From: an uncultured bacterium
GTDB taxonomy: Bacteria > Fidelibacterota > Marinisomatia > Marinisomatales > JACNKV01
NCBI GenBank assembly: GCA_964645915.1
Contig: CAZYDH010000004.1
Coordinates: forward strand, 7,224-71,223
DNA: 64,000 nucleotides
Reading direction: 5' to 3'
A program made the position numbers and the translations under genes. The notes under the pieces are model-generated. The model saw only the letters and a list, made by a program, of their open reading frames with translations. It searched no databases and was not told the DNA's origin. This document shows, piece by piece, positions 6,303 to 27,500 of the stretch; position 1 is the stretch's first letter, and each line of letters begins with the position of its first letter.

Positions 6303-7997
6303 TTATTTGATTAAACAAATTTTACGAATGATCGTCTGATCACCTATATTTGCCCTAACAAAAAACATTCCACTCGCAATACTACCGGCATTCCATTCGT
6401 ACACATAATGGTCAGCTTCAATATAATTATTTATTAACGTCTGTACTACTTCTCCACGGAGATTAACAATATCAACTGTTAAATATCCCTTGATTTGAAC
6501 ATCAACAGTAAATTTTGTTTTTGCATTGAAAGGGTTGGGGTATGGATTTGATATGGAAAAGTTTGATGGGATGATAGTTTCATCATCTATGTGTGCAAAT
6601 CCATTATAATTTATCGCAGCCATTACATCAATCACTCCCCATCCATATTGATTATCAGGATTTTCTATGTTATCGGCAGTCATCATTAACGCTTCTCTCA
6701 CCATCGATGGTGTCCAGCCTGGATGAGCACTTAATATAATCGCGCAAGCTCCACCGATCAAGGGGGTCGAAAGGGATGTTCCGTTCGCTTCGTAATAATG
6801 TTCCGGGTTGTATGATCCCGCACAAAAGGTTGCAACTCCACGAGCGCAGATTTCAGGTTTTGTGCGTCCATCTGCCGTCGGGCCCCAAGAACTAAAAGAT
6901 GCAATGTGTCCCATAGAATCTACAGCACCACAGGTGATAACATTAAAGGCATCAGCTGGAGCGATCAATCCCTCCTCCCCTGAATTTCCAGCAGCTGTTG
7001 CAACGATCATTCCATTTGCAATTGCTTGGTTAACCGCAATGGTTGTCACAGCTGTCAATCCGTCTAAATCTGAACTTTCATACCAATCGATATATCCCAA
7101 TGAAGAAGAGGCAATATCTGCTCCATTTTCTTCTCCCCATTCTAATCCAGCGACATAGTAATCTTCCTCAATTGGTTGTTCATCCGTAATATCTTCAGTT
7201 TTAGCAAGTAAGAATTCTGCGTCATAAGCCGCGCCAACCAATACACTGTCTTTTCTACCACCTAATACCGAAAGCGTCACTGTCCCATGATTGTGCTGAC
7301 TGCTATGGTCTCCCAGTTCATTTTGGGTTTCACTGTCATTATTGATAAAATCCCATTCCCCTATAATTTTATCATTTTGGATGGCTTCATGATCTTTATA
7401 ATATCCGGTATCTAACATCAGCACTCTAACGCCTTGTCCAGCGAACCCTGCATTATGGGCTTCGATGACATTAATCTGGTTTAATTGGGAATATGATAAT
7501 CCATAAACCGTGGTTGTATTTGTTGTTTTTTGGACTCGGTGATTTAAAACATCTTCTTTACGTTTTCCTGCGAAAACGGGATGGATCTTTTTCACACAAT
7601 TCAACTCGTTTATCAAATAAATAGTTTCTTTTGTGGCACTTATTGAAACAGCATTTAACCATTTTGATTTGGTGCGAATTGTTCCACCAAGATCAACGAT
7701 TTGTTGGATGTATATCTGATTTACAGGGATGTCTTTTTCATCAACAATAAATGCACCTCTTGTTTTTCCTCGCCGATATTTTACTCGATTATCCATCTGC
7801 AATTCCAATTTGGATAACAACGTATCTGACTCTATTTCGGTAAGCCCCTTATCTTTAAAGAGAACCCAGACATGAATCTTATTTTCAGATCTTTTTCCAA
7901 TTTTAAATGTATTTTCATCAATTTCTGCACCCAAAATCCATGTTATTGATAACAGAAAAATGAAAACCATTTGATATATTTTTTGTGATTTAATCAT
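6303..7997 (-). CDS. S8 family (subtilisin-like) serine peptidase with a T9SS C-terminal sorting domain
   Basis: Catalytic triad blocks DTGY / HGT / GTSLSTP, a signal peptide, and a C-terminal NPYPNPFN...GMFFVRA...LIK sorting domain. Confidence 0.85.
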   Translation of the reverse strand: MIKSQKIYQMVFIFLLSITWILGAEIDENTFKIGKRSENKIHVWVLFKDKGLTEIESDTLLSKLELQMDNRVKYRRGKTRGAFIVDEKDIPVNQIYIQQIVDLGGTIRTKSKWLNAVSISATKETIYLINELNCVKKIHPVFAGKRKEDVLNHRVQKTTNTTTVYGLSYSQLNQINVIEAHNAGFAGQGVRVLMLDTGYYKDHEAIQNDKIIGEWDFINNDSETQNELGDHSSQHNHGTVTLSVLGGRKDSVLVGAAYDAEFLLAKTEDITDEQPIEEDYYVAGLEWGEENGADIASSSLGYIDWYESSDLDGLTAVTTIAVNQAIANGMIVATAAGNSGEEGLIAPADAFNVITCGAVDSMGHIASFSSWGPTADGRTKPEICARGVATFCAGSYNPEHYYEANGTSLSTPLIGGACAIILSAHPGWTPSMVREALMMTADNIENPDNQYGWGVIDVMAAINYNGFAHIDDETIIPSNFSISNPYPNPFNAKTKFTVDVQIKGYLTVDIVNLRGEVVQTLINNYIEADHYVYEWNAGSIASGMFFVRANIGDQTIIRKICLIK

Positions 7998-8139
7998 AAA
8001 ATAAAATAAGGATGATTTTCCTATTCTACAAACATTGAAGGACTTTCATATTTTCGATATTTTAAAAATATGAACTAAGGCAATACCCTTAAATCCACGA
8101 TGATGGTGAGTCCAATAGTATACGTATTATGTTTTTTAT

Positions 8140-10383
8140 TTATTGAGCGTCATTTACTGCAATGGCTGTCATATTGACAACATCTTCAACCGTACTTTCA
8201 GAGAACTGGAGTAAATGAACGGGTTTTGAAAGCCCCAGTAAAATCGGACCGATTGCTTTTGCATCAGCCAATTGCTTTAGTAGTTTGTATGCAATGTTTC
8301 CTGACGTCAAATCCGGGAAAATCAACACATTAGCTTCTTCTTGAAGTTTTGAGAACGGAAAATGCTCCTGAAGAAGTCTTGTGGAAACCGCTACATCAGC
8401 ATGCATTTCACCATCAACGATCAAATCAGGCGCTTTTTCCCAAACAATCTTAACCGCATCCTTTACTTTTTTAGACCATGGATGCGAAACACTCCCAAAG
8501 TTACTTGGACTAATCAGAGCAACTCGAGGGTCGATACCAAGTTTTTTTGCTTCATCAGCGGCTAAGATAGTTATTTCAGCCAACGCCTCTGCATCCGATT
8601 CAATATTGACCGTTACATCTGCAAAGAGTTTTATTTTATCTTTCAAGGCTAAAATATACATACCGGCTACGCGTGATATTCCCTCGCGAGGTTTCAGCAT
8701 CTGTAAGGCAGGTCTTAACGTGTCCGGATAATTTTGTGCTATTCCTGAAACCATTCCATCTGCATCTCCCATTTGGACCATCATCGGACCAAAATAATTT
8801 GTTCGTTTCATTAGTTCACATGCTCTTCTTCTTGTGACACCTTTTCGTTGCCGCATGCGATAAAATTCCATGCAATAATCTGCATGTAGAGGACTCTTAT
8901 TTGGCTTGATAATTTCCACACCCTCTAATGAAATATGTAATCTTTCAGCATTTTCTTTGATGATATCAGGATTACCTAACAAAATGGGGTTTGCAATACC
9001 TTCTGATACAATTTGACTACTGGCACGAATGATTCTATCACTTTCTCCTTCAGGGAATACAATTCGTTTTGGATTTTTTCTGGCTTTGTTTATGATACTA
9101 CGCATCAATTCTCGACTTTTCCCCAATCGCGCTTCTAACCTATCTCGGTACTCTTGAATATCGATCGTTTGTCCCGCGACTCCAGAATCCATGGCAGCTT
9201 TTGCAACCGCTGAAGCTTCCCAAATTAACACTCTCGGATCGAAAGGTTTTGGAATAATATATTCCCGACCAAACTCCAAATGATCCAATCCATATGCATC
9301 AATGACTTCATCCGGAACATCTTCTTTCGCCAATTCTGCTAATGCGATTGACGCCGCAACTTTCATCTCATCATTGATTGCAAGAGCATGTACATCCAAT
9401 GCTCCTCGGAAAATAAAAGGGAAACCCAACACGTTGTTAACTTGATTTGGATAATCAGAACGCCCTGTAGCCATAATAACATCTTCTCTTGCAGCTGTGG
9501 CATCAGGATAGGTGATTTCAGGGTCAGGATTTGCCATTGCAAAAACGATAGGATTATCTGCCATAGAACGAATCATTTCTTTCGTAACCAATCCGGCACG
9601 CGAAAGTCCAACAAATACATCTGCTCCGACCATAGCTTCTTCAATGGTTCGAAGATCGGTTTCAACTGCAAATTGTTCCTTATATTTATTCATCCCTTCT
9701 TTTCTGCCTTTAAAGACAACACCTTTGCTATCACACAAGATCACATTTTCACGTTTTAAACCAAACCGCAGGTAATGAGTTGCGCATGCAATTGCGGAGG
9801 CACCTGCACCACTCACGATCAAACGTAGATCTTCAATGTTTTTTTCAGCTAATTCCGCTGCATTCACCAAGGCAGCTGCAGAAATAATCGCCGTTCCATG
9901 CTGATCATCATGAAAAACCGGAATATCCATTTCATCGATCAATCGCTCTTCAATTTCAAAACACTCCGGAGCTTTTATGTCTTCTAAGTTTATTCCTCCA
10001 AAAGTAGGTTCCATTAATTTTACGGCTTCAATAAACTTTTCAACATCATGTGTATCTAACTCAATATCAAATACATCAATATCTGCAAATCGTTTAAATA
10101 AGACACCTTTTCCTTCCATAACCGGCTTCCCGGCAAGAGCTCCAATATCTCCTAAGCCCAAAACCGCTGTACCATTTGATATTACAGCAACTAAATTTGA
10201 TTTAGCGGTATATAAATTTGCCTTGGATGGATCGGCTTCAATTTCACGGCATGGTTCGGCTACTCCAGGCGTATAAGCCATAGATAGATCGTCTTGTGTA
10301 ATACATGGTTTTGTAGAAACGACTTCAATCTTTCCCGGACGTTTATTTTGATGATATTCGAGAGCTTGTTTTTTTGTAATCAT
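8140..10383 (-). CDS. maeB: NADP-dependent malic enzyme with a C-terminal phosphate acetyltransferase-like domain
   Basis: 747 aa. The N-terminal malic enzyme blocks (YTPGVA, NGTAVLGLGDIG, FGGINLEDI) and PTA-like C-terminal half are the typical MaeB architecture. Confidence 0.9.
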   Translation of the reverse strand: MITKKQALEYHQNKRPGKIEVVSTKPCITQDDLSMAYTPGVAEPCREIEADPSKANLYTAKSNLVAVISNGTAVLGLGDIGALAGKPVMEGKGVLFKRFADIDVFDIELDTHDVEKFIEAVKLMEPTFGGINLEDIKAPECFEIEERLIDEMDIPVFHDDQHGTAIISAAALVNAAELAEKNIEDLRLIVSGAGASAIACATHYLRFGLKRENVILCDSKGVVFKGRKEGMNKYKEQFAVETDLRTIEEAMVGADVFVGLSRAGLVTKEMIRSMADNPIVFAMANPDPEITYPDATAAREDVIMATGRSDYPNQVNNVLGFPFIFRGALDVHALAINDEMKVAASIALAELAKEDVPDEVIDAYGLDHLEFGREYIIPKPFDPRVLIWEASAVAKAAMDSGVAGQTIDIQEYRDRLEARLGKSRELMRSIINKARKNPKRIVFPEGESDRIIRASSQIVSEGIANPILLGNPDIIKENAERLHISLEGVEIIKPNKSPLHADYCMEFYRMRQRKGVTRRRACELMKRTNYFGPMMVQMGDADGMVSGIAQNYPDTLRPALQMLKPREGISRVAGMYILALKDKIKLFADVTVNIESDAEALAEITILAADEAKKLGIDPRVALISPSNFGSVSHPWSKKVKDAVKIVWEKAPDLIVDGEMHADVAVSTRLLQEHFPFSKLQEEANVLIFPDLTSGNIAYKLLKQLADAKAIGPILLGLSKPVHLLQFSESTVEDVVNMTAIAVNDAQ

Positions 10384-11648: not shown

Positions 11649-12764
11649 CTATTCTGGGTGATTAAAGTGGGTCCCTTCTTTATACAAACGTTCAATTTCT
11701 GTTTTTACCCGTTCGGAAGCCTTTCCATCTAATTTGTAGAAATAGTAATCCCGATCCTTTTTTGCTGCTTCAATCATCTCTTTGGTTGGATGTAATGCTT
11801 TTTGAATTCCTTCTTTAAGTTCATCGGGATGGGATAAATGAACAAATGAATCTTTAAGAAATGTTCGATTATCAATGGTTAAAAGAGGTTCTCCATCGCT
11901 ATGTTTTAATAATTCATGATTCAAATCAAATATTACACCAATTTTTCCGGTTGCTAAAAATTCTGTCACAGCACCTGAGGCTTCAGAAACTAAAGTATCT
12001 GCCGCTGTCATTAATGGAAGAATACTATATTGATCAGGAGGAATAATCACTGCATGAGAATATTTTAAAATACGTCGTTCAAAGATTCTATGTTGACTGT
12101 GCCTGGCAAATTTCCCTCGCCAGGCGTAATGGTGTAGTTTTATAATGAGGTTGTAATTTTTGGTTGCTTCAAAGATAGCATCTTTCAGTTCATATGCACA
12201 AGTAGGCTTATAAGTTGGAGCAAATAATATGGTTTTTTTCTTTGGGTCTAATCCGAGGGATGATATTATCTTTTCTCGATCATTGTCCTTATTTTTGAAA
12301 TAAGTATCCAGTTTGGGGTATCCAACTTTATATACTTCAGATTGAAACAAACTTCCCGATTTATGCAATTGTTGCACTGAAAAATCCCCTTCAGCAAAAA
12401 TCATATATCGACCGGTCTTGTGTTTCTTTAATTCTCTAAATGTAACTGTTTTTGTAAAGGTGATTCCATGATAAACAAGACAAAGCAATGTTTGTCCATA
12501 ATCAGATTCCCTGACAACATCCGGAACAATTACAATATTAAATTTTTCTTTTTCATCAGAAATACGATATCCCTGTGATTCAAATTCTTTTAAATATTTA
12601 TAAGATAATTTTTTCGTAAATATACCAAAGACTCTTTTATTTTCATCGGTCAACGATAGGGCAACGTCATAACGAGGGTCCTTCTTGAACACTTCGATTA
12701 ACGAATCATAAGCCGTTTTGTGATATAAATAAAACATTTTGAATAAAATTTTTATTTTACTCAA
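11649..12764 (-). CDS. CDP-glycerol glycerophosphotransferase (TagB/TagF) family protein
   Basis: 371 aa. VGYPKLD, ILFAPTYKP, IIKLHH and SEASGAVTEF blocks match the Glyphos_transf pattern (GYPxxD / LYAPTxR / KxHP / SSxxxE). Confidence 0.7.
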   Translation of the reverse strand: MSKIKILFKMFYLYHKTAYDSLIEVFKKDPRYDVALSLTDENKRVFGIFTKKLSYKYLKEFESQGYRISDEKEKFNIVIVPDVVRESDYGQTLLCLVYHGITFTKTVTFRELKKHKTGRYMIFAEGDFSVQQLHKSGSLFQSEVYKVGYPKLDTYFKNKDNDREKIISSLGLDPKKKTILFAPTYKPTCAYELKDAIFEATKNYNLIIKLHHYAWRGKFARHSQHRIFERRILKYSHAVIIPPDQYSILPLMTAADTLVSEASGAVTEFLATGKIGVIFDLNHELLKHSDGEPLLTIDNRTFLKDSFVHLSHPDELKEGIQKALHPTKEMIEAAKKDRDYYFYKLDGKASERVKTEIERLYKEGTHFNHPE

Positions 12765-12767
12765 CGA

Positions 12768-13835
12768 TTACCGCTCCCATTTTTTTATCATCTGTCTAAT
12801 TTGCCATTTTCTAATAAAGTTCTTTGGTTTGGTTTTTAAAGTTTTATGGATTCCAGAACCTAAGATATTATTTATTTCTTCAATGACTCTTGATGCTGAT
12901 AGACCATCGGTATAAGGATGAATTTCATCTAAATATTGCAAACGATTATTCATGAATTCATCAGGATTTATTAGAGATCGTTCAATAGCGCCGTGCAAGT
13001 CATCCTTAGAATTGATATTTATTCCTTTATCTTTTCTTGCAATCGCTTTATAAGTAATAATGGGTTTATTCAAAACAAGATATTCATAAGCAACCGAAGA
13101 GGTATCGGTTATAAGAACATCTGCAATTTGCAAATATGGAAGAATATTTACATCGTTAATAATGGTTACATTTTGATTGCTTAATTCACAGTATTGCTGT
13201 TGTATTTTTTCATCCAATAGAGTGTGGAATTTCAATAAAATCTGATATGGAGCTTCTTTCAGTTTTGAAAAAGCAGGCAATAAATCCGGCGCGGATGTAT
13301 ATTTTGGTGGAAAGGTTGGAGCATATAATATGATGGGTTTTTTGGTGGAAAGATTGAGTTTTTCCATCATTTGTTGATTGATATTTTCCTTGTTAGAGAA
13401 CTGTGAAAACAAAGGGTCTAATTTAGCCCAACCGGTTTCACGAACAAAAAAGTGTCCATGTTGTTTTGCCAGACGATTGAAACCGTCTGTAGTATTTGGT
13501 CCAAATGTACAATATAAATCAAAGAATCCTGTAATACGATAAAACCCTTTAGGTTCATCATCTAACCCGTGAAAAATCTGTACCTTGAGTCCAGGCCAAA
13601 AATCGGGAACTATATTACCGGGTACAATCACTGCATCCGGATTAAAATTGATTACATCGGAAGATGTAAGCAATTTCTTACCTGGGACAGGGTAATCTTT
13701 TGCTGTACTACCAGTAAACCAGCAAACTTTACCACAATGATTTTTGTTAATAAATTTCTGAATAGGCTCTAATATCGAAAATGAATATGGTTTTGTTACA
13801 AAAAATAGATATTTATATAATGGAGAATTCATCAT
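12768..13835 (-). CDS. CDP-glycerol glycerophosphotransferase (TagB/TagF) family protein, paralog
   Basis: 355 aa. GWAKLDPLF, ILYAPTFPP, LLKFHTLL and ITDTSSVAYEYL blocks. There is a 3-nt gap to each neighbouring gene. Confidence 0.7.
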   Translation of the reverse strand: MMNSPLYKYLFFVTKPYSFSILEPIQKFINKNHCGKVCWFTGSTAKDYPVPGKKLLTSSDVINFNPDAVIVPGNIVPDFWPGLKVQIFHGLDDEPKGFYRITGFFDLYCTFGPNTTDGFNRLAKQHGHFFVRETGWAKLDPLFSQFSNKENINQQMMEKLNLSTKKPIILYAPTFPPKYTSAPDLLPAFSKLKEAPYQILLKFHTLLDEKIQQQYCELSNQNVTIINDVNILPYLQIADVLITDTSSVAYEYLVLNKPIITYKAIARKDKGININSKDDLHGAIERSLINPDEFMNNRLQYLDEIHPYTDGLSASRVIEEINNILGSGIHKTLKTKPKNFIRKWQIRQMIKKWER

Positions 13836-13838
13836 TCA

Positions 13839-14933
13839 CTAATATATTTCTTCCAATAGTTTATGCACCTGATATTTTGTAAGATTAACGATGTTATTAT
13901 CCATTCTTCCTTTAGTAAACGACTGATCAGTCAAGTCTTGTACATCTGATTTTTTTACTCCCCATTCTTGCAAGGAAACTTTTAATGTGCTTCCGGGGAT
14001 TTGTTTTAAACATTGTTCAAAATTAGAGAAACTATCAATACCTGTTTTTCTCATAATAATTGTTAATTCCTGTTCAATTGCATGTCTGTTTATTTGCAAT
14101 AATGGAATCAAAGGAAGTGAACAAGCAACACCATGCGGAATTCCAAAACGAATTGTTAGTGGATAACTGATAGAATGAGCCGCTGCAGTTTTCGTATTTG
14201 AAAATGCTAATCCTGCTAAATTAGAAGCTCGTAGTAATATATTTCTTAATTCAATATCTTGAGGGGTTTCTTTAAACTTAGTAATCGTTATTAAAATCAA
14301 ACAAATGGCTTCAATTGCATACTCTGTTGATTTTTTATTAGCATTTTTATTCCAAATAGCTTCAAAACTATGACTTAACGCATCCAAAGTTGTCGATAAA
14401 GAAATATGCAGGGGTAAGCTCAGTGTTAGTGTCCCATCCAAGATTGCTATATCAGGATAAAGATCGGGATGAGAAATTGAGTATTTTTTCTTTTCATTCA
14501 TATCCCATACTGTTGCCCACATCGTCACTTCGCTTCCTGTTCCGTGCGTAGTGGGGATGAAAACTCCCGGAACCCGATTAGCATACGGTGAGGTGATCGC
14601 CAATAATTTATTTAAATCTGTGATGTTTGTACCCATGGAGGCCATTACGACCTTTGCTGTATCCATAACCGAACCACCTCCAATTGCAACTACTCCATCA
14701 AAATTATTGGTTTTGCTAAACAGTACCGCTTTAAGGCAACTATCAAAGGTTGGATTCGATCCTATGTCACTAAAAATGATATTTTTATCAAATTCTGTAT
14801 TCAATTTTTGTAGATGTCTAATCTCAGGGGATGTAATAATCAAAGGGTTTTTCATGTTGAGTTCGCTTAGCTTCTCAAACAACGTGTTGACCCACTGATT
14901 GGTTTCTACGACATTTGTTGGATTAAAATACAC
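13839..14933 (-). CDS. Iron-containing (group III) alcohol dehydrogenase, phosphonoacetaldehyde reductase-like
   Basis: 364 aa with GGGSVMDTAK and His-rich metal-ligand blocks (LDALSHSFEA, AAAHSISYPL, GIPHG). It sits directly downstream of ppd/pepM. Confidence 0.7.
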   Translation of the reverse strand: MYFNPTNVVETNQWVNTLFEKLSELNMKNPLIITSPEIRHLQKLNTEFDKNIIFSDIGSNPTFDSCLKAVLFSKTNNFDGVVAIGGGSVMDTAKVVMASMGTNITDLNKLLAITSPYANRVPGVFIPTTHGTGSEVTMWATVWDMNEKKKYSISHPDLYPDIAILDGTLTLSLPLHISLSTTLDALSHSFEAIWNKNANKKSTEYAIEAICLILITITKFKETPQDIELRNILLRASNLAGLAFSNTKTAAAHSISYPLTIRFGIPHGVACSLPLIPLLQINRHAIEQELTIIMRKTGIDSFSNFEQCLKQIPGSTLKVSLQEWGVKKSDVQDLTDQSFTKGRMDNNIVNLTKYQVHKLLEEIY

Positions 14934-14953
14934 GAATTATCTGACAGTTTTTT

Positions 14954-16093
14954 TTATTTATTTTGAATGTATTTAATAAAGGCTTTTTTATTCTCGACAG
15001 GTTTAATAGTAGGACGTCCTAAATCCTCTCTCGATCCGGGTTTTACAATTACTTCTAAAAAATTAGGTCCATGTTCATTGTTTTTCAAAAACTCTATCCC
15101 TTTGGTTTTAAGGTCTTTCTCACTATTTATTGATAAGACATTTTTATATCCATTAGCTAAAACAAGACCTGAAATGTCAATATGATCAGCTGATGTTGCC
15201 TGACCCCCAACGGATTCATGAACTTGATTGTTAATCAAAATATGAAAAAAGTTTCTCGGATGTAATTTTCCTACGGTTGATAGGCTTCCCATATGCATGA
15301 TAAGGGCTCCGTCTCCATCAATACAAATGACTTTTCTATCTGAATTGGATATGGCAATTCCCAAAGCAATCGATGAGCAATGTCCCATGGAACCTACTGT
15401 AAGAAAATCCTTGCAATGAGGTTCGCCATTTTTGTGTCTAATCTCAAAAATCTCACGAGAAGTTTTTCCGGTAGTTGAAACAATAATTGCATCGTCAGAA
15501 AATGAACCTAATAAGATGTTCAATGCATTTTCTCGTGTCATCATTTTTGGATTGTCTGATGAAGGGTTTACTCGATATGGCTCGAATGTTCCTTTTTTAA
15601 TCACGAATACAAAGGGTCGGTTTTCAAATGTTGCTTTTTCAATTCCCTTCGCGATTTTTGCATCAACATCCTGTTCATCTTTAGATATAATTGAATAAGG
15701 CAAATCCAAAGATTTTAATAAATCAAGCTGGACTTCTCCTTGTTTAACATGTTGAGGTTCATCTTTTACGCCTGGTTCTCCTCGCCAACCTACGATAAGG
15801 AGCATCGGGATCGAATACACATCAGGGTCACATAACGATAAAAGTGGATTTACAGCATTTCCTAATCCTGAATTTTGCATATAAACGAGTGGGATTTTGT
15901 TTGTTCCAAGATAATATCCTGAGGCCAAAGCAATGGCATTACCTTCATTTGCAGCGGTAATATGATGTTCGTTGTCCACATTATCATCAATGCAAAGACA
16001 AAAATGCTTTAATAACGAATCCGGGACACCGGTGAAGAAATCAATCCCTTTTTCTGTCAGACTTTTGTAAAACTGTAAAGGATCAATGCTCAT
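14954..16093 (-). CDS. ppd: Phosphonopyruvate decarboxylase (ThDP-dependent)
   Basis: 379 aa. The N-terminal FFTGVPDSLLK block is typical of Ppd/AepY, and the ThDP motif is GDGALIMHMGSL...NN. It shares a 1-nt TAATG overlap with pepM. Confidence 0.85.
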   Translation of the reverse strand: MSIDPLQFYKSLTEKGIDFFTGVPDSLLKHFCLCIDDNVDNEHHITAANEGNAIALASGYYLGTNKIPLVYMQNSGLGNAVNPLLSLCDPDVYSIPMLLIVGWRGEPGVKDEPQHVKQGEVQLDLLKSLDLPYSIISKDEQDVDAKIAKGIEKATFENRPFVFVIKKGTFEPYRVNPSSDNPKMMTRENALNILLGSFSDDAIIVSTTGKTSREIFEIRHKNGEPHCKDFLTVGSMGHCSSIALGIAISNSDRKVICIDGDGALIMHMGSLSTVGKLHPRNFFHILINNQVHESVGGQATSADHIDISGLVLANGYKNVLSINSEKDLKTKGIEFLKNNEHGPNFLEVIVKPGSREDLGRPTIKPVENKKAFIKYIQNK

Positions 16094-17394
16094 TAGTATT
16101 CCTCTGGAATTAATGTTAATATTTCCTTAATCGGCATACAATATTCCTTGGAAGCTTCTAAACAACGATCATGCTTGAGAATAGTCTCTGCAGTTTTAAC
16201 CATAGACGGATATGCACTACGGACAAGATGGTTACCATAAATTACAATATTAACCCCCAAATCTTTGAGGTCGGTTTCTGTCATATGAGCAAATGTTGAA
16301 GGAACAACTACCAGAGGAACTTGTTTTTCAAATGATTGAAATTCTCGGCAAAATTCTTTAATCTCATTACCATCCTTTTCTTTACTATGGATCATGATAC
16401 CATCTGCTCCAGCATCAATATATGCTTTAGCTCTTGTTAAAGCATCTTCCATTCCATTCTTAAGTATTAAACTTTCAATCCGAGCAATGATCATAAAATC
16501 ATTTGTTACTAATGCTTTTTTACCGGTTTTAATTTTTTCCGAAAAATGCTCAATTGTGTCTTGTTCTTGAACGACATCGGTTCCAAATAATGAGTTTCGT
16601 TTTATACCAACTTTATCTTCAATTATGACAGCTGAAACACCCAAACGCTCTAAGGTTCGAACCCTAAACCGGAAATGCTCTATTTTTCCTCCGGTATCGC
16701 CATCCACTATAATGGGTTTAGTTGTAACTTCCAGTATTTCTTCTATTGTCTGGAATCTTGAAGAAAAATCTACAATTTCTGTATCTGGCTTACCTTTTGA
16801 AGTAGAAACAGTTAAACTACTTAACCATATTCCGTCAAATTCTTTCCTTACCCCACTATTTTCGATTTTTGCTTTTTCTACTATAAGACCCGTTAGGCCA
16901 TTATGCGCCTCAAGAATTCTTAATGTAGATTTCGCATTCAACAGTCTTTTTAACGATTTCAACCGAACATTTGGTGTGATACCCTTTTCTTTTAAGGTGT
17001 TAATTAATTGAGTAGACGATATCCCATCTGTATATTTAATTTCGACAAGTCTTCCACCCCATTCATTCAGTGCATCAATGACCCTTTGCCGAGTCTCTCG
17101 CTGGACACCTGTTTTCCAATCGTCCCCATGAACTACATAATCGGGTTTTATTTTTCTGAGATTGGGAACATAATCGAGGGACTCTTGTGAAATTACTTCA
17201 TGAACTCCTTTTATATTTTCAACAATGAGCTTCCTTTGTTTAAAAGGGATAAGAGGAAGTCGTTTATAACTTGCAATGGCTGCATCCGTCAACAACCCTA
17301 TAATCACGTCACCTAATTTTTTTGCTTCATTTATTATATTTAGATGCCCATGATGGATTAAATCTGCTGACATCCCTACATAAACCTTCTTCAT
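16093..17394 (-). CDS. pepM: Fused cytidylyltransferase (HxGH type) / phosphoenolpyruvate mutase
   Basis: 433 aa. The N-terminal ~130 aa is [15 protein letters not shown] (HxGH nucleotidyltransferase, TagD-like). The C-terminal domain carries the PepM-diagnostic EDKxxxxxNS motif ([10 protein letters not shown]). Confidence 0.9.
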
Positions 17395-17468
17395 TTTTTT
17401 CTCCGTTTCATTTCACATAATAGTATACATGAAATATATTATGACTTATTATATAAACAATTTAAGGA

Positions 17469-18662
17469 TTAAAATCCTTTTTCAGCTATAGAACAATCAT
17501 GTAATCCTGCATCATAGTCTTTTTTAGGAGTTCTCCAATCCCCATAGCGAAGGGTCAAGTATTCATCTACATGAGATGGTGTATGGATTTCTCTTCCTTC
17601 CCAAATGATTGTTTCCAAATTGGAATGGAATTTTTCATCAACCTGTTTTAAAGCATTAGTATCAATCCATCGATGAAATTTGCCCACATGATAGAGACAG
17701 AATAAATCTATATGAAAATTGATTTGTTTTAGTTTTTCCCATGGTGTTTTTATTTTCACAACTCTGGTATCACCGGGTATCCATGGACTATTTATAGGTT
17801 TCTTCTTCACAAGATATTTTGGGAAGAATTTTCCCCAAAGATTTAATACTTTTTGTGCATATTCTTCTGGGATTCCAAGATCCGCATCATAATCCCATGG
17901 GATTAAGTCACCATCTCTAACAATCCCCAAAAGAGTTCCGGCTTCCAACCAATGTGGTATATTATTTTCCTTTAGAATGTCGATTGTATAAAGGAGCATA
18001 TTTTTCATCCGTTGATGATATTTTTTTTCATGCAACTTAATCTTAATAGTCGGTGTAGCTTTGATAACTTTTTTTGGAGGAATTTCCTTGATAATTGGAT
18101 CATTTACAATGGTTATATCTTCAATTTGTTCAATCCAACCCGGAGAAAATTCAAGCCAATTCCCATATCTTTGAGTGAGATAATCTTCAGGATTTGATGG
18201 AGTTGGATATTGGTTTAAGTTTACACTAATAGAATCTAATTCATTAAAATAATGTTCATTAATCCATTTGCAATTTCTGTTTTTAACCCACCGATATTTG
18301 TCTTGATTTTTAAACTTAGGTGTGATAAACAACTTTTCCGCATCGCTTCTTCGTTTCCAGCTATTAAAAATTTCAACTCGACTGACATTTCCTGGGATCC
18401 ATTGTCTTCCTGAATTATCTGGATAACAATAAAATTTGTACAAGGGACCAAGTTCATTTTTTATAGATAGTAACTTTTCTAAAGAGTCTCCGGAAATAGA
18501 TATATAAATATTTTTTCTAGTGGGTAATTGTCTGTTATTTTTTTGTACCATTATTTCTAATAGTGTAAAATGATCTAACCAATAAGGAATCGCATATTTT
18601 TCGAGGATACGTGTTGTATCCCGAAATATTTTATTTTGTATTTTTGTCTTTATTTCCATCAA
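17469..18662 (-). CDS. LicD-family phosphotransferase with tandem LicD-like halves (N-terminal half degenerate)
   Basis: The C-terminal half has IPHWLEAGTLLGIVRDGDLIPWDYDADLGI, the LicD GTLLG...PWDxDxD motif. The N-terminal half has IPYWLDHFTLLEIM but no DxD. Confidence 0.7.
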   Translation of the reverse strand: MMEIKTKIQNKIFRDTTRILEKYAIPYWLDHFTLLEIMVQKNNRQLPTRKNIYISISGDSLEKLLSIKNELGPLYKFYCYPDNSGRQWIPGNVSRVEIFNSWKRRSDAEKLFITPKFKNQDKYRWVKNRNCKWINEHYFNELDSISVNLNQYPTPSNPEDYLTQRYGNWLEFSPGWIEQIEDITIVNDPIIKEIPPKKVIKATPTIKIKLHEKKYHQRMKNMLLYTIDILKENNIPHWLEAGTLLGIVRDGDLIPWDYDADLGIPEEYAQKVLNLWGKFFPKYLVKKKPINSPWIPGDTRVVKIKTPWEKLKQINFHIDLFCLYHVGKFHRWIDTNALKQVDEKFHSNLETIIWEGREIHTPSHVDEYLTLRYGDWRTPKKDYDAGLHDCSIAEKGF

Positions 18663-18682
18663 ATCAACTTACTATTCTGAGA

Positions 18683-20527
18683 CTATTGATTAAACTGAAT
18701 ATCATACAAATTTTTATACACACTATCATTTTTCATTAATTCTTCATGAGAACCAGTCTCAGATATTTCACCGTTTTTTAATACAATAATTTTATCCGCA
18801 TTCTTGATAGTTGAAAGCCGATGAGCTATCACAAGAGTTGTTCGATTCTTCATTAGTTTCTCTATCGCCACTTGAACGGCTAACTCAGATTTTGTGTCCA
18901 AAGATGATGTCGCTTCATCCAAAATTAAGATCGGTGGATTTTTCAATAATGCACGTGCAATTGCTAGTCTCTGACGTTGTCCTCCGGATAATCGAACTCC
19001 TTTATCTCCAACGATCGAATTCCACCCGTCCGGCATTTCTTCAATAAATTCAAGGGCATTTGCGGCTTTGGCCGCTTCCCGAATCGCATCCTCTGAAAGG
19101 CTCTCTAAACCATAAGCAATATTTGATTTGATTGTGTCATTAAAAAGAATGGTTTCTTGAGTTACGATTCCCATCTGTTCTCTTAGAGAAGATAGTGCAA
19201 CCTCACGAATGTCTTTACCATCAATCATGATCTTTCCACTAGTGACATCATAAAATCTAGGGATAAGGTCTGCAATGGTTGATTTACCTGCACCACTGGC
19301 TCCAACAACTGCGACGATCTCTCCTTTTTTCACAGAGAAAGAAATCCCATTTAAAACTTTAGTATCCTCTCCTTTATAATGAAAGTGGACATCTTCAAAT
19401 TGAATCCTATCTTTAAACCGTGAAGCTTGTACAGCATTTGGAACATCACAAATATCCGGAGCACGATCTAATACAGTATAAACCCGTTCAGCTGATGCCA
19501 TCCCTGCTTGCAACTCAACATTAACATTGCTCAATTTTCGTAACGGATCCATCACACTGAACATCAGTAAAACGAACCGAATAAAATCTTCTGAAGTCAT
19601 TGATTTTTCGACTAAGACATCCATTCCGCCCACCATGAGTAGAGACACCCCAATTCCAACCCCAATAGTTTCAGTAATGGGTGTAGATAAATGACGAAGT
19701 TTTGCGCGTCTGAAAATCAACTTAAAATATTTTTTTGTTTCCTTTAAAAACTTGGTTATTTCATATTGCTCCATTGAGAATGCTTTCACAATCCGAATGG
19801 ATGCAAGTGTTTCGGTGATAATATTGGTGATCCCCGCAATTTTACCGGCTGTTCGACGTGACTTTCTGCGAATACTACGTCCGATAGCAAAAATAGCAAT
19901 CCCTGAAACTGGGACAATAATCCCTGCAACCAATGTTAATTTTGGACTGATTATGAACATCAACGTTAAAAATGCTAAGATGTTGATCGGTTCAACAAAG
20001 AGTTTTTGAAAGCTTGTCGAAAGTGCACGACGCATATTCGCAACATCATTAACAACTATCGATGTAAGTTCTCCCGATTTTTTCCGATCAAAATAAGATA
20101 ACGATAATTGCTGAAATTTTACATAAAGACGATTTCTTAATTCCGTAATCAATTGAAATTGAACATAAGTAAGTAAGATATTCTTTAGATATAAAAATAC
20201 ATTTTTAACAGCGAAAACACTCAATAAATACACGCACAGCATTTTTAAAGTATCAACTGCAGTCTCTTGTAAAATTAGATTGTTCGTCCATAATTTTAAT
20301 CGGTCGTTCATCGATAAATCTGTCGCTGATTCTAATAGTTTACTTTCCCTAACCACATTTTCAAAATCGGCTAAAATACTATTTAATAGCGAAGCTGTCA
20401 GCCAAATGGAGATACTGTTAAATGAAACATAGATAAACGCTGCAAGAGTAGACCCCAACAAATAAAACCAATATTTTCCAACCAGTTTAAATAATCTTGT
20501 ATATAGAGATTTCGGTTTTTCGATCAT
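18683..20527 (-). CDS. ABC transporter, fused permease/ATPase (MsbA/exporter type)
   Basis: 614 aa with six predicted TM helices, then Walker A GASGAGKST, signature LSGGQRQR and Walker B ILILDEATS. Confidence 0.85.
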   Translation of the reverse strand: MIEKPKSLYTRLFKLVGKYWFYLLGSTLAAFIYVSFNSISIWLTASLLNSILADFENVVRESKLLESATDLSMNDRLKLWTNNLILQETAVDTLKMLCVYLLSVFAVKNVFLYLKNILLTYVQFQLITELRNRLYVKFQQLSLSYFDRKKSGELTSIVVNDVANMRRALSTSFQKLFVEPINILAFLTLMFIISPKLTLVAGIIVPVSGIAIFAIGRSIRRKSRRTAGKIAGITNIITETLASIRIVKAFSMEQYEITKFLKETKKYFKLIFRRAKLRHLSTPITETIGVGIGVSLLMVGGMDVLVEKSMTSEDFIRFVLLMFSVMDPLRKLSNVNVELQAGMASAERVYTVLDRAPDICDVPNAVQASRFKDRIQFEDVHFHYKGEDTKVLNGISFSVKKGEIVAVVGASGAGKSTIADLIPRFYDVTSGKIMIDGKDIREVALSSLREQMGIVTQETILFNDTIKSNIAYGLESLSEDAIREAAKAANALEFIEEMPDGWNSIVGDKGVRLSGGQRQRLAIARALLKNPPILILDEATSSLDTKSELAVQVAIEKLMKNRTTLVIAHRLSTIKNADKIIVLKNGEISETGSHEELMKNDSVYKNLYDIQFNQ

Positions 20528-20604: not shown

Positions 20605-21030
20605 TTACCGGATTTGTAATACCATTTTTTTATGAGGGATATTGGCTTCACAAAATTGTTTTCCTTCTGATCTAAAACCAAATTTCTCATAAAATGGAAT
20701 TACAGCTTCCTGAGCATTTAAATAAATATTTTTTTCAGTTGAATTCTTTTCTAAACAAAAGAGTACTAATTCAGACCCAACCTTTAATCCTCGAAATTGC
20801 TTCAATACTGCGAATCTTTCCAATTTCAACCCGTGTTTAGTTTTTCTCCATCTTGCAGTTGCAATCGGTTCTTCATTTATCTTTGCTAAAATGTGTTGAG
20901 AACTTTTATCGAATTCATCCATTTCAATATTTTCTTCAACATTTTGTTCCTCAATAAATACTTTTCTCCGAATTTCAAATGCGATATGCAATTCCTCTTC
21001 GGTTGTAATTCTATTTATACAAATAGTCAT
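20605..21030 (-). CDS. GNAT family N-acetyltransferase
   Basis: 141 aa. The RGLKVGSELV acetyl-CoA binding block fits the GNAT fold pattern. Confidence 0.8.
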   Translation of the reverse strand: MTICINRITTEEELHIAFEIRRKVFIEEQNVEENIEMDEFDKSSQHILAKINEEPIATARWRKTKHGLKLERFAVLKQFRGLKVGSELVLFCLEKNSTEKNIYLNAQEAVIPFYEKFGFRSEGKQFCEANIPHKKMVLQIR

Positions 21031-21060: not shown

Positions 21061-21759
21061 TTACTTCTTCTCCGGACCTTCCCAAAGGATCGGATAAATT
21101 GATTCACCAAACATTCCAACATTCGCTTTATAAAATTCATTCAAATCTTGATGATCAAAAGGAGTTTTCATGCTTTTATTTTTTAGAGTATTCCCAAAAT
21201 AATTCCCCCCATACACATCAACCGATGATTGATGTCGCACCATTCTCACCGGATAGACATCTGCTTTAATGGCGGCCATTATATCACTATCTGAATCACC
21301 ATAATACATATCGAGTCCAAGATAATTCATAATTCTATGTTTGGTTGTAAACTTATTTCCTTCGATGTATTCTTTTGGACTAAAAAATAAATTCTTTTCC
21401 ACTTCAACGTTAAATCCAACGATATCAGAAAGGAATTCCGCAACATAATGACCGTTTTCACCCCCTCTTGCAGTGATAAAATAAACTTCATGTCCGTTTA
21501 AATGAAAATAACGGACAAGAGCAATGGTAGGAGTGATCGGAATAGATAATTCTCTATCACGAGCATTGATCCAGCCAAAATCAAGGCGGTTATTTTGATC
21601 TCTTGGTGCATCTTCAAACACATAACGAGAATATAGAACTGTGTCATCAATGTCAAAACCAACCTTCATAATTCCCGGTTGTGAAAAAAGAAATCCATTT
21701 AATATTATTCCTAATAATACCATTAAATAAAATTGTGTTTTTGTGGTGTTTATTTTCAT
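21061..21759 (-). CDS. Secreted HAD-superfamily class B acid phosphatase-like protein
   Basis: VGFDIDDTVLYS (DDDD-type motif I), ITAR and YGDSDSDI motifs. I moved the start to M45 (MKINTTKTQFYLMVLLG... signal peptide), because the longer ORF is antisense to hemW. Confidence 0.65.
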   Translation of the reverse strand: MKINTTKTQFYLMVLLGIILNGFLFSQPGIMKVGFDIDDTVLYSRYVFEDAPRDQNNRLDFGWINARDRELSIPITPTIALVRYFHLNGHEVYFITARGGENGHYVAEFLSDIVGFNVEVEKNLFFSPKEYIEGNKFTTKHRIMNYLGLDMYYGDSDSDIMAAIKADVYPVRMVRHQSSVDVYGGNYFGNTLKNKSMKTPFDHQDLNEFYKANVGMFGESIYPILWEGPEKK

Positions 21760-21788
21760 ATCGTTATCTGTCCTATGTAATTTATTGC

Positions 21789-22922
21789 GTGCAAACAGCG
21801 GGAATTTACATCCATATACCTTTTTGTAGGAAAAAATGTCTTTACTGCGATTTTTACTCCATTCCAAATGCAGATGATCTAATTCAACCATTCATTGATG
21901 CGCTTTGTATTGAAATCGAACAATGTAATATAGACATTTCTGACTGGCATTTTGATACATGTTTTATTGGGGGTGGAACACCCAGTATTCTTCATCCTAA
22001 TCAATTGGAACAATTACTCACCGCATTAGAAAAACATTTTAATATCCATCACTTTTCTGAATTCACCATCGAAGTGAATCCCGGAGAAATCTCTGAAAAT
22101 GCGTTAAACCAATTTCGATCATTAGGTATTAATCGTCTTTCATTGGGTATTCAATCTCTAAACTCAAATAATCTTAAAACCCTTGATCGAATTCACACCC
22201 CTGAACAGGCGATCCAATCAATTGAGTTAGCAAAAAAGATCGGTTTTGATAATATCTCTTGTGACCTTATCTATGGAATTCCAAATCAATCAATACAATC
22301 ATGGAAGGAGACTTTAAAAACCGTTATAAAACTTCAACCCGAACATCTTTCAGCCTATGAACTCACAGTTGAACCAAAGACACCACTTTACTCCATGGTC
22401 GCTTCAAATAAAATTCAAATGCCATCGGATTTAAGTATACTGAAAAAATCGCAATTAACTCATAATCTTCTAAACGAAAATGGATATGACAAATATGAGG
22501 TAAGTAATTATTCTATACCGGGTAAAAAGTGTGTACACAATTTACATTATTGGAGAATTGAACCATATTTAGGGTTGGGTCCTTCAGCACATAGTTTCGA
22601 TGGTACACAACGATATTCAAATCTGATTGATCTGCATCTATATATTGATAATTTACAGAACAATAAATCGGTTCAAAATCATCAGGAAACACTTACTGAA
22701 ATACAATTAACTAACGAAAAAATTGGATTCGGATTAAGGATGAAAGAAGGAATTAACTTGAATTCATTTTCTAAATCACAACAAGAGCAGATAACAATAT
22801 CTTTGAGTATAACTCAAGATAAATGGCCGGGATGTATACAGATCTGTGATGGTCAAATTTCTTTAACAGAAAAAGGAATAATTTTCGCAGATACGATAGC
22901 CGTTGATCTTTTTATTAACTAA
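21789..22922 (+). CDS. hemW: Radical SAM heme chaperone HemW (coproporphyrinogen III oxidase-like)
   Basis: GIYIHIPFCRKKCLYCDF (CxxxCxxC) near the N-terminus, and the HemN_C region. I propose a GTG start at 21789. The track start (ATG at 21681) adds 36 aa antisense to the neighbouring signal peptide. Confidence 0.8.
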   Translation: MQTAGIYIHIPFCRKKCLYCDFYSIPNADDLIQPFIDALCIEIEQCNIDISDWHFDTCFIGGGTPSILHPNQLEQLLTALEKHFNIHHFSEFTIEVNPGEISENALNQFRSLGINRLSLGIQSLNSNNLKTLDRIHTPEQAIQSIELAKKIGFDNISCDLIYGIPNQSIQSWKETLKTVIKLQPEHLSAYELTVEPKTPLYSMVASNKIQMPSDLSILKKSQLTHNLLNENGYDKYEVSNYSIPGKKCVHNLHYWRIEPYLGLGPSAHSFDGTQRYSNLIDLHLYIDNLQNNKSVQNHQETLTEIQLTNEKIGFGLRMKEGINLNSFSKSQQEQITISLSITQDKWPGCIQICDGQISLTEKGIIFADTIAVDLFIN

Positions 22923-24685: not shown

Positions 24686-25189
24686 ATGAACAAAAAGAAA
24701 CGAAAAAATAAACACTCTAAAAACAGTATTTTTTCTGTTTTATTTAATGAATATAGGTTTGAATTGACGGTTGGACTTCTGTTCAGCTTAGGGGTTTTTC
24801 TTTTGTGGGAAGACATGGAGATTAAGAATTTTGTATGGAATGCTATCGAAACTAGCGCAAGGTTTGCTGCGGATATAATTCTACTCTTTCTTTCCGGAGT
24901 AGCAAAAATAATTCGTTCAGTAGAAACTTCTGATGTAATTGGTTTGATTTTTATTATAAGTGCAGGAGTTCTCGTATTAGACCGAGTACGAATTCGAACA
25001 ATCGAACGGATGATCTTACCGGACACCTGTCCTAAGTGTGACGGTGATTTACAAAGAATACACCGAACATTAAAACACCGAATCCTTGAGATTATCATGA
25101 CGGCAAGGATCAAACATTATCGATGCAAAAATTGTTCCCATCAGTTCATAGCTGCTAAACGGAAGAAAAAAACAAGAATCACAGAGTGA
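24686..25189 (+). CDS. Hypothetical membrane protein with a C-terminal zinc ribbon
   Basis: Lys-rich N-terminus, about 3 hydrophobic helices, then CPKCDG...x26...CKNCSH. GGAG lies about 9 nt upstream of the ATG. I prefer it over the fully overlapping antisense ORF 24682-25113, which has low-complexity content. Confidence 0.45.
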   Translation: MNKKKRKNKHSKNSIFSVLFNEYRFELTVGLLFSLGVFLLWEDMEIKNFVWNAIETSARFAADIILLFLSGVAKIIRSVETSDVIGLIFIISAGVLVLDRVRIRTIERMILPDTCPKCDGDLQRIHRTLKHRILEIIMTARIKHYRCKNCSHQFIAAKRKKKTRITE

Positions 25190-26928: not shown

Positions 26929-26929
26929 A

Positions 26930-27466: not shown

Positions 27467-27500
27467 GGTTTATTGAAGCATTTCTAATGTATTCTTAAAT

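Follow-up and report, generated by a model that had tools for sequence, protein, structure and literature searches.

A putative hydroxyethylphosphonate operon combining TagF-like and LicD-like transferases in Marinimicrobia

Several described systems resemble parts of the locus reported here. In the fosfomycin cluster of Streptomyces wedmorensis, Fom1 joins an N-terminal PF01467 domain to a C-terminal PEP mutase (PepM), and a PhpC/FomC-type Fe-dependent alcohol dehydrogenase (Fe-ADH) is found in the same cluster. There, Fom3 methylates CMP-HEP, and later hydrolysis yields the free antibiotic. In the TagB/TagF/TarF/TarL family, which shares PF04464 with the capsule polymerase Cps3D, all characterised enzymes use CDP-glycerol or CDP-ribitol to our knowledge, and we know of none with a CMP-phosphonate donor. 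In the Lic1/LicD system of Haemophilus and Neisseria LOS, a small CDP-activated head group, phosphocholine, is attached in the cytoplasm to a lipid-linked glycan, which is flipped afterwards. Pnt clusters combine PepM and Ppd with a branch-point enzyme, nucleotidyl activation and transfer to a surface glycan; examples are the AEP of Bacteroides fragilis polysaccharide B, PntC-LicD of Treponema and Atopobium, and the hydroxyethylphosphonate (HEP) phosphonoglycans of Glycomyces and Stackebrandtia. LicD-like phosphotransferases have been noted beside ppm (PMC6697681). HEP esters are known on exopolysaccharide, and on glycans they form an established product class (PMC8942020, PMC13576164).

The locus belongs to a marine SAR406/Marinimicrobia bacterium. 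Seven tightly packed genes, all on the minus strand, occupy positions 11649-20527 of the window, the 64,000-nucleotide stretch that was analysed. They encode two TagF-like transferases, a PhpC-like Fe-ADH, Ppd, a cytidylyltransferase-PepM fusion, a duplicated LicD-like transferase and an MsbA-like ABC transporter. Intergenic gaps are 3, 3, 20, 74 and 20 nt, and the ppd start lies on the pepM stop with a 1-nt overlap (TAATG). The ORFs are maximal, so that some TTG or GTG starts are uncertain. This arrangement agrees exactly with a previous sequence-only reading, whose motifs [25 protein letters not shown]...NN and GGGSVMDTAK were all found in the translations, and the profiles it proposed for searching (TIGR02320, PF13714, PF01467, TIGR03297, PF00465, PF04464 and PF04991) all matched. 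The same seven genes recur in the same order in many Marinimicrobia contigs, with protein identity down to about 50%, which argues against a chance juxtaposition. The block had also been described as an AT-rich island. The direction of this difference is real, if weakly confirmed (gene-level Mann-Whitney test of island versus rest, p 0.01 for GC and 0.06 for GC3), but its size is just about 2 points (34.5% GC versus 36.6% in the rest), and the composition of the island lies inside the range of single housekeeping genes.

The fusion protein (16093-17394) begins with a cytidylyltransferase domain (aa 4-136, 16987-17385; PF01467, 64.6 bits) that carries an HHGH motif and is predicted to convert CTP and HEP to CMP-HEP. 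Its PepM domain (aa 148-432, 16099-16953; TIGR02320, 405 bits for a cutoff of 320; PF13714, 201.7 bits) would convert PEP to phosphonopyruvate; it contains the motif [10 protein letters not shown] and matches the PepM structure 1M1B (E 8.5e-43). Both domains and motifs of the fusion, as read earlier, are thus confirmed. The cytidylyltransferase domain is 68% identical (90/133, ungapped; E 2e-57) to the CyTase domain of Fom1 (PDB 5X3D), for which formation of CMP-HEP from HEP was shown biochemically (Cho 2017, as cited in PMC6697681), and this likeness makes the predicted activation of HEP well supported. By itself, the domain does not specify HEP, since CT-PepM fusions from Clostridium clusters of the AEP type show the same degree of similarity (about 68%).

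Ppd (14954-16093; TIGR03297, 471 bits for a cutoff of 312.5, full length) would irreversibly decarboxylate phosphonopyruvate to phosphonoacetaldehyde, which a group III Fe/Zn alcohol dehydrogenase (13839-14933; PF00465 and PF25137) is predicted to reduce to HEP. Like PhpC, FomC and DhpG, this enzyme is a group III metal-dependent ADH encoded directly after ppd, with TIGR03405 (Phn_Fe-ADH) as its best NCBIfam model, 93 bits above the next family. At 260 bits, it falls under the 423.7 cutoff of this curated equivalog, as does every pepM-linked ADH tested. We counted this shortfall against the reading of the operon as a system for decoration with HEP. PhpC-type enzymes are very divergent, with a mean identity of 39% (PMC13576164). 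No AEP transaminase was found in the window, either by tblastn with five pepM-linked class-V aminotransferases (best E 0.3) or in Pfam and NCBIfam scans of its larger ORFs, where PF00266 was absent; its absence had been noticed earlier from the letters alone. The other competing branch-point enzymes, MpnS/HepD and Fom3, are likewise missing from the window. PepM and Ppd accompanied by a PhpC-like Fe-ADH, in the absence of a transaminase, point to HEP as the end product, in support of the product first proposed.

A comparison of 80 CT-PepM loci from many phyla places these enzymes in a wider context. A homologue of the Fe-ADH follows ppd in 62 of the 80, while an Aminotran_5 gene is present in seven. 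Downstream sequence was sufficient in 54 loci, and here the Fe-ADH gene is directly followed by a TagF-like gene in 23 and by a LicD-like gene in 10. With 33/54 loci showing one or the other, the proposed wiring of the transferases to the phosphonate pathway is borne out. Judged by gene order, many phyla share a cassette of CT-PepM, Ppd and Fe-ADH with a TagF-like or LicD-like gene immediately after them. Most lineages have one TagF-like or one LicD-like gene; the two occur together in just three loci, all from Marinimicrobia, and almost never elsewhere. This suggests that they are alternative terminal transferases of one cassette. Transferase content also varies among related Marinimicrobia: L006 has three TagF-like genes and no LicD, and L013 has one TagF-like gene plus LicD.

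TagF-like transferase B (12768-13835; 355 aa) matches PF04464 with 84.6 bits (cutoff 22). Its AF2 model (pLDDT 87.4) has TagF 3L7x as top Foldseek PDB match (TM 0.67-0.70, E 3e-14). Residues H89 and H204 align with two conserved histidine columns of 45 pepM-linked homologues, and H204 also aligns with the histidine of TagF 'LLRMHYL'. Transferase A (11649-12764; 371 aa; PF04464, 52.8 bits, cutoff 22) is a divergent paralogue with conserved H99 and H211; its closest match in the PDB is Cps3D, a TagF-like capsule polymerase (E 8e-07). It forms a separate Marinimicrobia clade and is paired with B in every case. Both proteins share with the TagF family a PF04464 score above the gathering threshold and the two conserved histidines, and the model of B has a TagF-like GT-B fold; they differ in their low identity to the family (15-18%), in their small size and in lacking the N-terminal domain of the polymerases. 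The TagF-like proteins all fall far under the cutoffs of NCBIfam equivalogs (43 bits versus 550 for TarF). We predict that B is a CMP-HEP:acceptor phosphonyl transferase and A a second CMP-HEP-dependent transferase, each probably making single additions. A CMP-phosphonate donor, as genomic context predicts, would be unprecedented for the PF04464 family, and we found no discussion of such transferases in phosphonate tailoring in the searchable literature.

The LicD-like gene (17469-18662) encodes two halves that align at 28% identity (E 2e-17), confirming the tandem LicD seen before. The N-terminal half (about 18063-18662), which has lost the DxD motif, is degenerate: in the alignment, its 'PTRKNIYIS' stands opposite 'PWDYDADLG' of the C-terminal half. 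The latter (about 17472-18062) alone matches PF04991 (63.6 bits, aa 231-328) and, as in the LicD family generally, retains the DxD motif and aligns, this motif included, to the FKRP catalytic domain (6KAJ). This duplicated architecture of about 397 aa is essentially confined to Marinimicrobia; an identical database protein has 396 aa, one codon less. The presence of three transferases for one head group was counted against decoration with HEP.

The ABC gene (18683-20527) encodes a half-transporter with six TM segments and an NBD. Its best NCBIfam model is MsbA (TIGR02203), matched over the full length with 514 bits, under the equivalog cutoff of 602; this, too, was held against the HEP-decoration reading. 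Rather than an exporter belonging to the island, as had been thought, it is a conserved backbone gene that borders a variable cassette. In relatives, it is found with 54-81% identity upstream of the HEP cassette and likewise upstream of a pepM-free one. The next backbone neighbours, a GNAT acetyltransferase (20605-21030) and a HAD class-B acid-phosphatase-like gene (21061-21891), both on the minus strand and identified by Pfam and NCBIfam matches, are conserved in position upstream of this gene in L001, L010, L081-L087 and L091, whichever cassette follows. L091 and L085 share the backbone ExoPhos, HAD, AlgE, Cpn10, GNAT, MsbA-like ABC and, farther on, DUF1015. In place of pepM, the same site there holds LicD and one TagF-like gene, a pair of NTP-transferase genes, a sulfotransferase gene and one for WaaF, the LPS heptosyltransferase (TIGR02195, 178.6 bits for a cutoff of 134.6). 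Such a sister cassette points to variable decoration of the LPS core. The organism has an LPS pathway, with LptD at 45770-49288; no glycosyltransferase is encoded in the window.

Our preferred reading, which we hold to be reasonably probable, is that the operon serves HEP synthesis, activation with CMP by the Fom1-like domain and transfer to a cell-envelope glycolipid in Marinimicrobia. The three cytoplasmic transferases, that is, the two TagF-like GT-B enzymes and the LicD-like enzyme with its single intact catalytic half, would each move hydroxyethylphosphonyl from CMP-HEP to a hydroxyl group on a lipid-linked acceptor, with release of CMP. The adjoining MsbA-like transporter, the probable flippase, would then carry the decorated acceptor across the inner membrane. 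The LPS/LOS core is the most likely candidate for this acceptor, because the operon adjoins an MsbA-like gene at a site where relatives hold another head-group cassette that includes waaF; this assignment is drawn from gene neighbourhood in relatives. Addition of a CMP-activated head group to a lipid-linked glycan ahead of flipping would parallel Lic1. Unlike Lic1, the locus has no licA, licB or licC, its LicD-like halves are fused in tandem with one degenerate, and the predicted head group is a phosphonate instead of a phosphate ester.

Other readings assign the transferases differently. The TagF-like enzymes might use CDP-glycerol or CDP-ribitol made elsewhere to form a phosphodiester linker, leaving CMP-HEP to the LicD-like enzyme only. 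This would fit the donors of all characterised PF04464 enzymes, and the TagF-like gene in the pepM-free cassette of L091 indicates that the family is not tied to phosphonates at this locus. LicD-like enzymes are, moreover, published candidates for CMP-phosphonate transfer (PMC6697681). We nevertheless consider it unlikely: the window has no tagD or tarIJ-type gene, and in 23 LicD-free loci from at least six phyla a TagF-like gene directly follows the Fe-ADH, so that CMP-HEP would be left with no transferase. The product might instead be a phosphonolipid or phosphono-glycolipid, in which HEP would be placed as a head group on diacylglycerol or glycosyl-diacylglycerol, to be flipped by the ABC transporter. 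The adjoining MsbA-type lipid flippase, the lack of a glycosyltransferase in the operon and the best NCBIfam model of the LicD-like protein (Mycoplasma glycolipid cholinephosphotransferase Mf1, 58.7 bits, far under the 225 cutoff) speak for it. Yet the locus has no CDP-alcohol phosphatidyltransferase-type gene of the kind employed by predicted phosphonolipid clusters (PMC8942020), and other phyla have the cassette within polysaccharide loci, in L014 beside a Wzx-like Polysacc_synt gene; this makes a phosphonolipid quite improbable.

The sequence-only reading had raised the hypothesis of a 'phosphono-teichoic' oligomer or polymer. The TagF-like pair would then act as primase and polymerase, each HEP hydroxyl would be esterified by the next phosphonate, and the ABC transporter would export the chain. 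In its favour, HEP combines a primary hydroxyl with a phosphonate, a formal analogy to glycerol phosphate; the always paired, divergent paralogues recall TagB/TagF; and the closest solved structures are the polymerases TagF, TarL and Cps3D. The LicD-family proteins FKTN and FKRP extend ribitol phosphate on ribitol phosphate, and FKRP is matched by the C-terminal LicD-like half. Nothing positive emerged for such a polymer, however, and we regard it as very unlikely. A single TagF-like or LicD-like gene completes the cassette across phyla, the number of transferases varies between relatives such as L006 and L013, and 355-371 aa is the size of single-addition TagB/TarF enzymes, compared with 560-730 aa for polymerases. 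The transporter is of MsbA type instead of the TagGH ABC-2 type of teichoic acids, the waaF-containing sister cassette indicates core decoration, and no report of an HEP polymer was found in the searchable literature. Finally, fosfomycin biosynthesis also starts with a Fom1-like fusion and a PhpC-like ADH (PMC6697681, PMC13576164), and a diffusible phosphonate made via CMP-HEP could be expelled by the ABC transporter as an efflux pump. This is scarcely credible here: Fom3-type B12 radical SAM, Fom4, FomD, HepD, MpnS, NRPS and ATP-grasp genes are all missing, the only radical SAM gene nearby is HemW, and three of the seven genes encode glycan- or lipid-directed transferases. Where the fosfomycin cluster continues with Fom3, CMP-HEP formation would here be followed by three group transferases.

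On these grounds, the locus would be a variant of known phosphonoglycan tailoring clusters. It departs from most described Pnt examples, which are of AEP type with LicC-like PF12804 activators, and from Pnt clusters in its combination of three transferases, its position beside an MsbA-like gene and its host from an uncultured marine phylum. Enzyme families, synteny and the cross-phylum cassette can be read directly from the sequences, and decoration of an envelope glycolipid with HEP is their probable purpose. Marinimicrobia thereby become a candidate source of phosphonate esters in ocean dissolved organic matter.

Seven minus-strand ORFs occupy positions 11649-20527 of the window, at the places assigned to them by the sequence-only reading; spacers of 3, 3, 20, 74 and 20 nt separate them, except at TAATG, where pepM shares one base with ppd. 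All family calls of that reading were borne out by HMM searches (TIGR02320, PF01467, TIGR03297, PF00465, PF04464 and PF04991), and all the motifs it cited were recovered in the translated ORFs. The PepM domain scores 405.3 bits against the TIGR02320 equivalog (cutoff 319.55) and its translation contains the EDKxxxxxNS motif, which sets PepM apart from its relatives in the isocitrate-lyase superfamily (PMC6697681). It is fused, in the Fom1-type architecture, to an N-terminal PF01467 cytidylyltransferase (CyTase) domain (64.6 bits) with an HHGH motif. This domain aligns without gaps to the CyTase domain of Fom1 (PDB 5X3D; 68% identity, E 2e-57), which converts 2-hydroxyethylphosphonate (HEP) and CTP to CMP-HEP in the account of Cho 2017 given by PMC6697681. 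Because the CT-PepM fusions of aminoethylphosphonate (AEP)-type clusters are equally similar, the substrate should be set by the branch-point enzyme and not by the CT domain. One or two extra stand-alone genes for PF01467-like cytidylyltransferases, 27-35% identical to the fused CT domain, were observed in archaeal and CPR loci (Nanoarchaeota, Methanosarcinales and Saccharibacteria MAGs). They lie directly upstream of the fusion in four loci (L016:148-690, L017:4205-4747, L036:978-1547 and L033:10001-10384) and about 3 kb upstream of it in a fifth (L047:6386-7182).

The second enzyme, Ppd, also passes its equivalog cutoff (TIGR03297, 471.4 versus 312.5 bits) and contains the ThDP-binding domains PF02776 and PF02775 with a GDG...NN motif; the PepM and Ppd steps together commit the pathway irreversibly to phosphonoacetaldehyde. 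The branch point falls to the Fe-ADH, which belongs to PF00465 and PF25137 and in which GGGS and D/H metal-ligand motifs are seen by eye. Its closest curated family is TIGR03405, 93 bits ahead of ErcA; it fails the cutoff of that family (260 versus 423.7 bits), as do ten other pepM-linked ADHs (146-335 bits), and TIGR03405 as now curated appears to be tuned to PsrA-like sequences. PhpC-type reductases are very divergent (PMC13576164). An Fe-ADH homologue directly follows ppd in 62 of 80 CT-PepM loci, an Aminotran_5 gene taking its place in only seven; this position, like the best match to TIGR03405, argues for a phosphonoacetaldehyde reductase. The window holds no AEP transaminase, as had been claimed: tblastn with five pepM-linked class-V aminotransferases returned nothing better than E 0.3. 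The AEP pathway was rejected on this absence and on the rarity of the AEP type among related loci. Later chemistry of the methylphosphonate or fosfomycin type was likewise rejected, since no Fom3, Fom4, MpnS or HepD was found within the window and the neighboring radical SAM gene is hemW. With the Fe-ADH at the branch point, a Fom1-like CyTase and none of these four enzymes, the best-supported product route predicted from sequence is HEP, then CMP-HEP.

Where would CMP-HEP go? We mapped the genes of the 80 CT-PepM loci by iterative profile searches seeded with the window proteins. Among the 54 loci with at least 1 kb of sequence past the Fe-ADH, 23 have a TagF-like and 10 a LicD-like gene in the next position, and three additional loci have one or the other a gene further along. 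Pfam confirmed PF04464 in examples from Bacteroidales, Planctomycetota, Ignavibacteria and Cloacimonadota, and PF04991 in an example from Bacteroidia. Altogether, 31 loci contain a TagF-like gene and 22 a LicD-like gene; the two are found together in only three loci, all of them from Marinimicrobia. CT-PepM, Ppd and Fe-ADH with one TagF-like or LicD-like gene are thus a widespread four-gene cassette, whose last step can apparently be carried out by either transferase family. From this pattern across loci, which we regard as strong contextual evidence, CMP-HEP is the predicted donor of the TagF-like enzymes. LicD-like enzymes have already been mentioned in phosphonate clusters (PMC6697681). As for enzymes of the glycerophosphotransferase type, we found no mention of them in phosphonate or pepM clusters in the literature searched, and a prior mention in Yu 2013 or Yu 2014 is possible.

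In some loci the Fe-ADH is separated from the TagF-like or LicD-like gene by a gene for a Wzx-like flippase (Polysacc_synt; L014:13513-14796, with similar ORFs at L026:13547-14830 and L034:13593-14846), and the HEP cassette there forms part of a Wzx-dependent polysaccharide locus. In Bacteroidales, the TagF-like gene of the cassette is followed by an ORF of about 1000-1200 aa. The one scanned for domains (L027:14827-18210) has a YidC-like (60KD_IMP) N-terminal domain and a weak sulfatase/LtaS-like domain, and could encode a transferase or hydrolase that acts outside the cytoplasm and is linked to the phosphonate cassette; ORFs of similar size follow the TagF-like gene in L019, L042, L043, L053, L056, L060, L067 and L078.

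The block in the window carries two TagF-like genes and one LicD-like gene. TagF-like A (11649-12764, 371 aa) and B (12768-13835, 355 aa) both pass the PF04464 gathering threshold of 22.1 bits, with 52.8 and 84.6 bits, respectively. The AF2 model of B (pLDDT 87.4) has the GT-B-like fold expected of the family, its top Foldseek match in the PDB being TagF 3L7x (TM 0.67-0.70). The catalytic histidines of TagF are H444 and H584. Residues H89 of B and H99 of A match TagF H444 by motif ('FHG'/'YHG'), while H204 of B aligns with the His of TagF 'LLRMHYL'; the columns of H89/H204 in B and H99/H211 in A are 95% conserved among 45 pepM-linked homologues. Against the NCBIfam equivalogs TarF, TarL and TarB, A and B reach 22-43 bits versus cutoffs of 500-1000, and we know of no sequence rule that separates primases from polymerases in this family. 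A neighbor-joining tree of TagF-like proteins, built with no outgroups, is star-like and places A and B in separate clades. The LicD-like gene (17469-18662) is a true internal duplication, as its description as a tandem LicD had implied: its halves are 28% identical (E 2e-17). The C-terminal half passes PF04991 (63.6 bits), and its 'PWDYDADLG' aligns with 'PWDYDVDLG' of FKRP; the N-terminal half, though homologous, has lost the DxD motif.

A CT-PepM protein search with one genome per species returned more than 584 relatives, the closest among the matches listed being Candidatus Neomarinimicrobiota (Marinimicrobia/SAR406) MAGs at 70-88% identity. TagF-like B has 1815 database homologues, and the best 120 of these, with identities of 54% or more, are drawn largely from marine metagenome sources such as Tara and JGI. 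The seven-gene order is kept in Marinimicrobia MAGs and in contigs of marine metagenomes even where individual proteins are only about 50% identical, which argues that selection acts on the block as a whole; the context downstream of it differs between lineages. Transferase content also differs among the HEP clusters of Marinimicrobia: L006 has three TagF-like genes (8562-9701, 13566-15835) and no LicD, and in L013 the only TagF-like gene lies upstream of pepM, and a gene for a 374-aa LicD-like protein comes after the Fe-ADH (7534-8661, 13526-14650). The impression that the island is AT-rich holds in direction (34.5% GC versus 36.6% in the rest of the window, gene-level p = 0.01), but the difference is a slight 2 points. 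An origin by horizontal transfer, considered on composition, was not sustained in view of this small difference and of borders with no tRNA or mobility gene. The promoter/terminator scan gave 49 promoter-like sites where 49.8 were expected and no convincing internal terminator, and an Rfam scan of the window found two tRNAs and no riboswitch.

The other large ORFs scanned in the window are housekeeping only: malic enzyme/PTA, BirA, GNAT, HAD phosphatase, HemW, PNP, a shikimate/aromatic operon, LptD, tRNA synthetases and topoisomerase I. The aromatic amino-acid operon (25852-34528, minus strand) comprises prephenate dehydratase, prephenate dehydrogenase, class-II DAHP synthase, EPSP synthase, an aminotransferase, shikimate dehydrogenase, chorismate synthase, shikimate kinase and DHQ synthase. 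The maximal ORF of HemW (21681-22922, plus strand, GTG start) overlaps by about 210 nt the 5' part of the HAD phosphatase ORF (21061-21891, minus strand), and the true start of one or both probably lies further inside. T9SS C-terminal sorting domains were seen on two neighboring secreted proteins (4456-6243 and 6303-7997, minus strand), one a subtilase S8, the other with no further recognizable domain. A 311-aa ORF (40993-41928, minus strand) has no Pfam match at E 1e-4, its top NCBIfam match being 'UshA-like (seleno)protein' (126 bits, below the cutoff of 275); ORFs 3734-4447, 24686-25189 and 37180-37773 (167-237 aa) have no match in Pfam or NCBIfam.

The ABC half-transporter, called an exporter in the sequence-only reading, was considered as a dedicated phosphonate exporter. 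Instead, it proves to be an MsbA-like backbone gene conserved across contigs. It scores 514.4 bits against MsbA TIGR02203, below the equivalog cutoff of 602, yet this full-length match is still the best among 190 ABC models, and the orthologue in the metagenome relative L091 scores 529 bits. A metagenome search with the ABC protein revealed a conserved backbone, shared by the window, of Exo_endo_phos, (PNP), HAD phosphatase, (alginate-export porin, Cpn10), GNAT and ABC genes. In two of the relatives (L091:7499-12924 and L085:9927 onward), the MsbA-like gene and a downstream DUF1015 gene, itself seen in L081, enclose a different, pepM-free cassette: a single-domain LicD (210 aa), an NTP-transferase, an NTP_transf_3 gene, a TagF-like PF04464 gene and the heptosyltransferase WaaF (TIGR02195, 178.6 bits versus an equivalog cutoff of 134.6), with a sulfotransferase gene on the opposite strand. 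As the same backbone flanks either the HEP or the pepM-free cassette, head-group cassettes are swapped at the site beside the MsbA-like gene. Since one of these cassettes, the pepM-free one, includes an LPS inner-core enzyme and the window organism is a diderm with LptD, we infer that the acceptor is the LPS/LOS core or another lipid-linked glycan; no glycosyltransferase was found within the window. The lipid-linked acceptor would be decorated on the cytoplasmic face and then flipped by the MsbA-like transporter. The proposed decoration has an analogue in Haemophilus, where LicD adds phosphocholine to LOS.

The sequence-only reading went further and raised a 'phosphono-teichoic' hypothesis, an HEP oligomer or polymer built by the two TagF-like enzymes. 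In one form of it, this pair, perhaps helped by the LicD-like enzyme, would join HEP to HEP as a short oligo- or poly-HEP carried by LPS core or a lipid. The A and B paralogues are indeed paired without exception, and both enzyme families include members that add alditol phosphate to alditol phosphate. However, nothing speaks positively for such a chain: a single transferase is enough in most phyla, A and B measure 355-371 aa compared with chain lengths of 583-1149 aa in the solved polymerases TarL, TagF and Cps3D, and related Marinimicrobia have one, two or three TagF-like copies with LicD present or absent, a variation that looks like variable multi-site decoration. The wall teichoic acid pathway also fails, with no TagO, TagA, TagD or TagGH within the window and, unlike the TagGH ABC-2 exporter, an MsbA-type transporter in a diderm host. 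We therefore hold the chain to be very improbable; more likely than this, PF04464 includes widespread, unrecognised putative CMP-phosphonate:glycan phosphonyl transferases.

That the TagF-like enzymes use a CDP-alditol made elsewhere is unlikely, since 23 LicD-less cassettes would then have no CMP-HEP transferase. A phosphonolipid product, for which a CDP-alcohol phosphatidyltransferase-type gene is absent, is quite unlikely, and a diffusible natural product, tailoring genes being absent, can almost be dismissed. Surface decoration through HEP and CMP-HEP, by contrast, is supported by the pathway genes, the Fom1-like CyTase and the cassette shared across loci.

The locus is thus a variation on known phosphonoglycan tailoring clusters, made notable by its TagF-like transferases, the triple-transferase architecture of Marinimicrobia, the exchange of cassettes beside msbA and a plausible tie to marine HEP esters. 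To our knowledge, little is known of which organisms and enzymes attach HEP to glycans, and SAR406 has previously been flagged only by gene surveys; the locus is a concrete, abundant candidate for this attachment and puts forward particular transferases for the 'phosphonyl tailoring' step that is missing. Should the cassette be confirmed biochemically, the substrates of the TagF family would widen from CDP-alditols to CMP-phosphonates. A poly-HEP, if true, would be a C-P analogue of teichoic acid in a Gram-negative marine phylum and could feed the HEP pool that resists hydrolysis in marine dissolved organic matter. Finally, that cassettes are exchanged next to msbA suggests that LPS head groups vary from strain to strain in this uncultured phylum, a variation relevant to interactions with phages and grazers.
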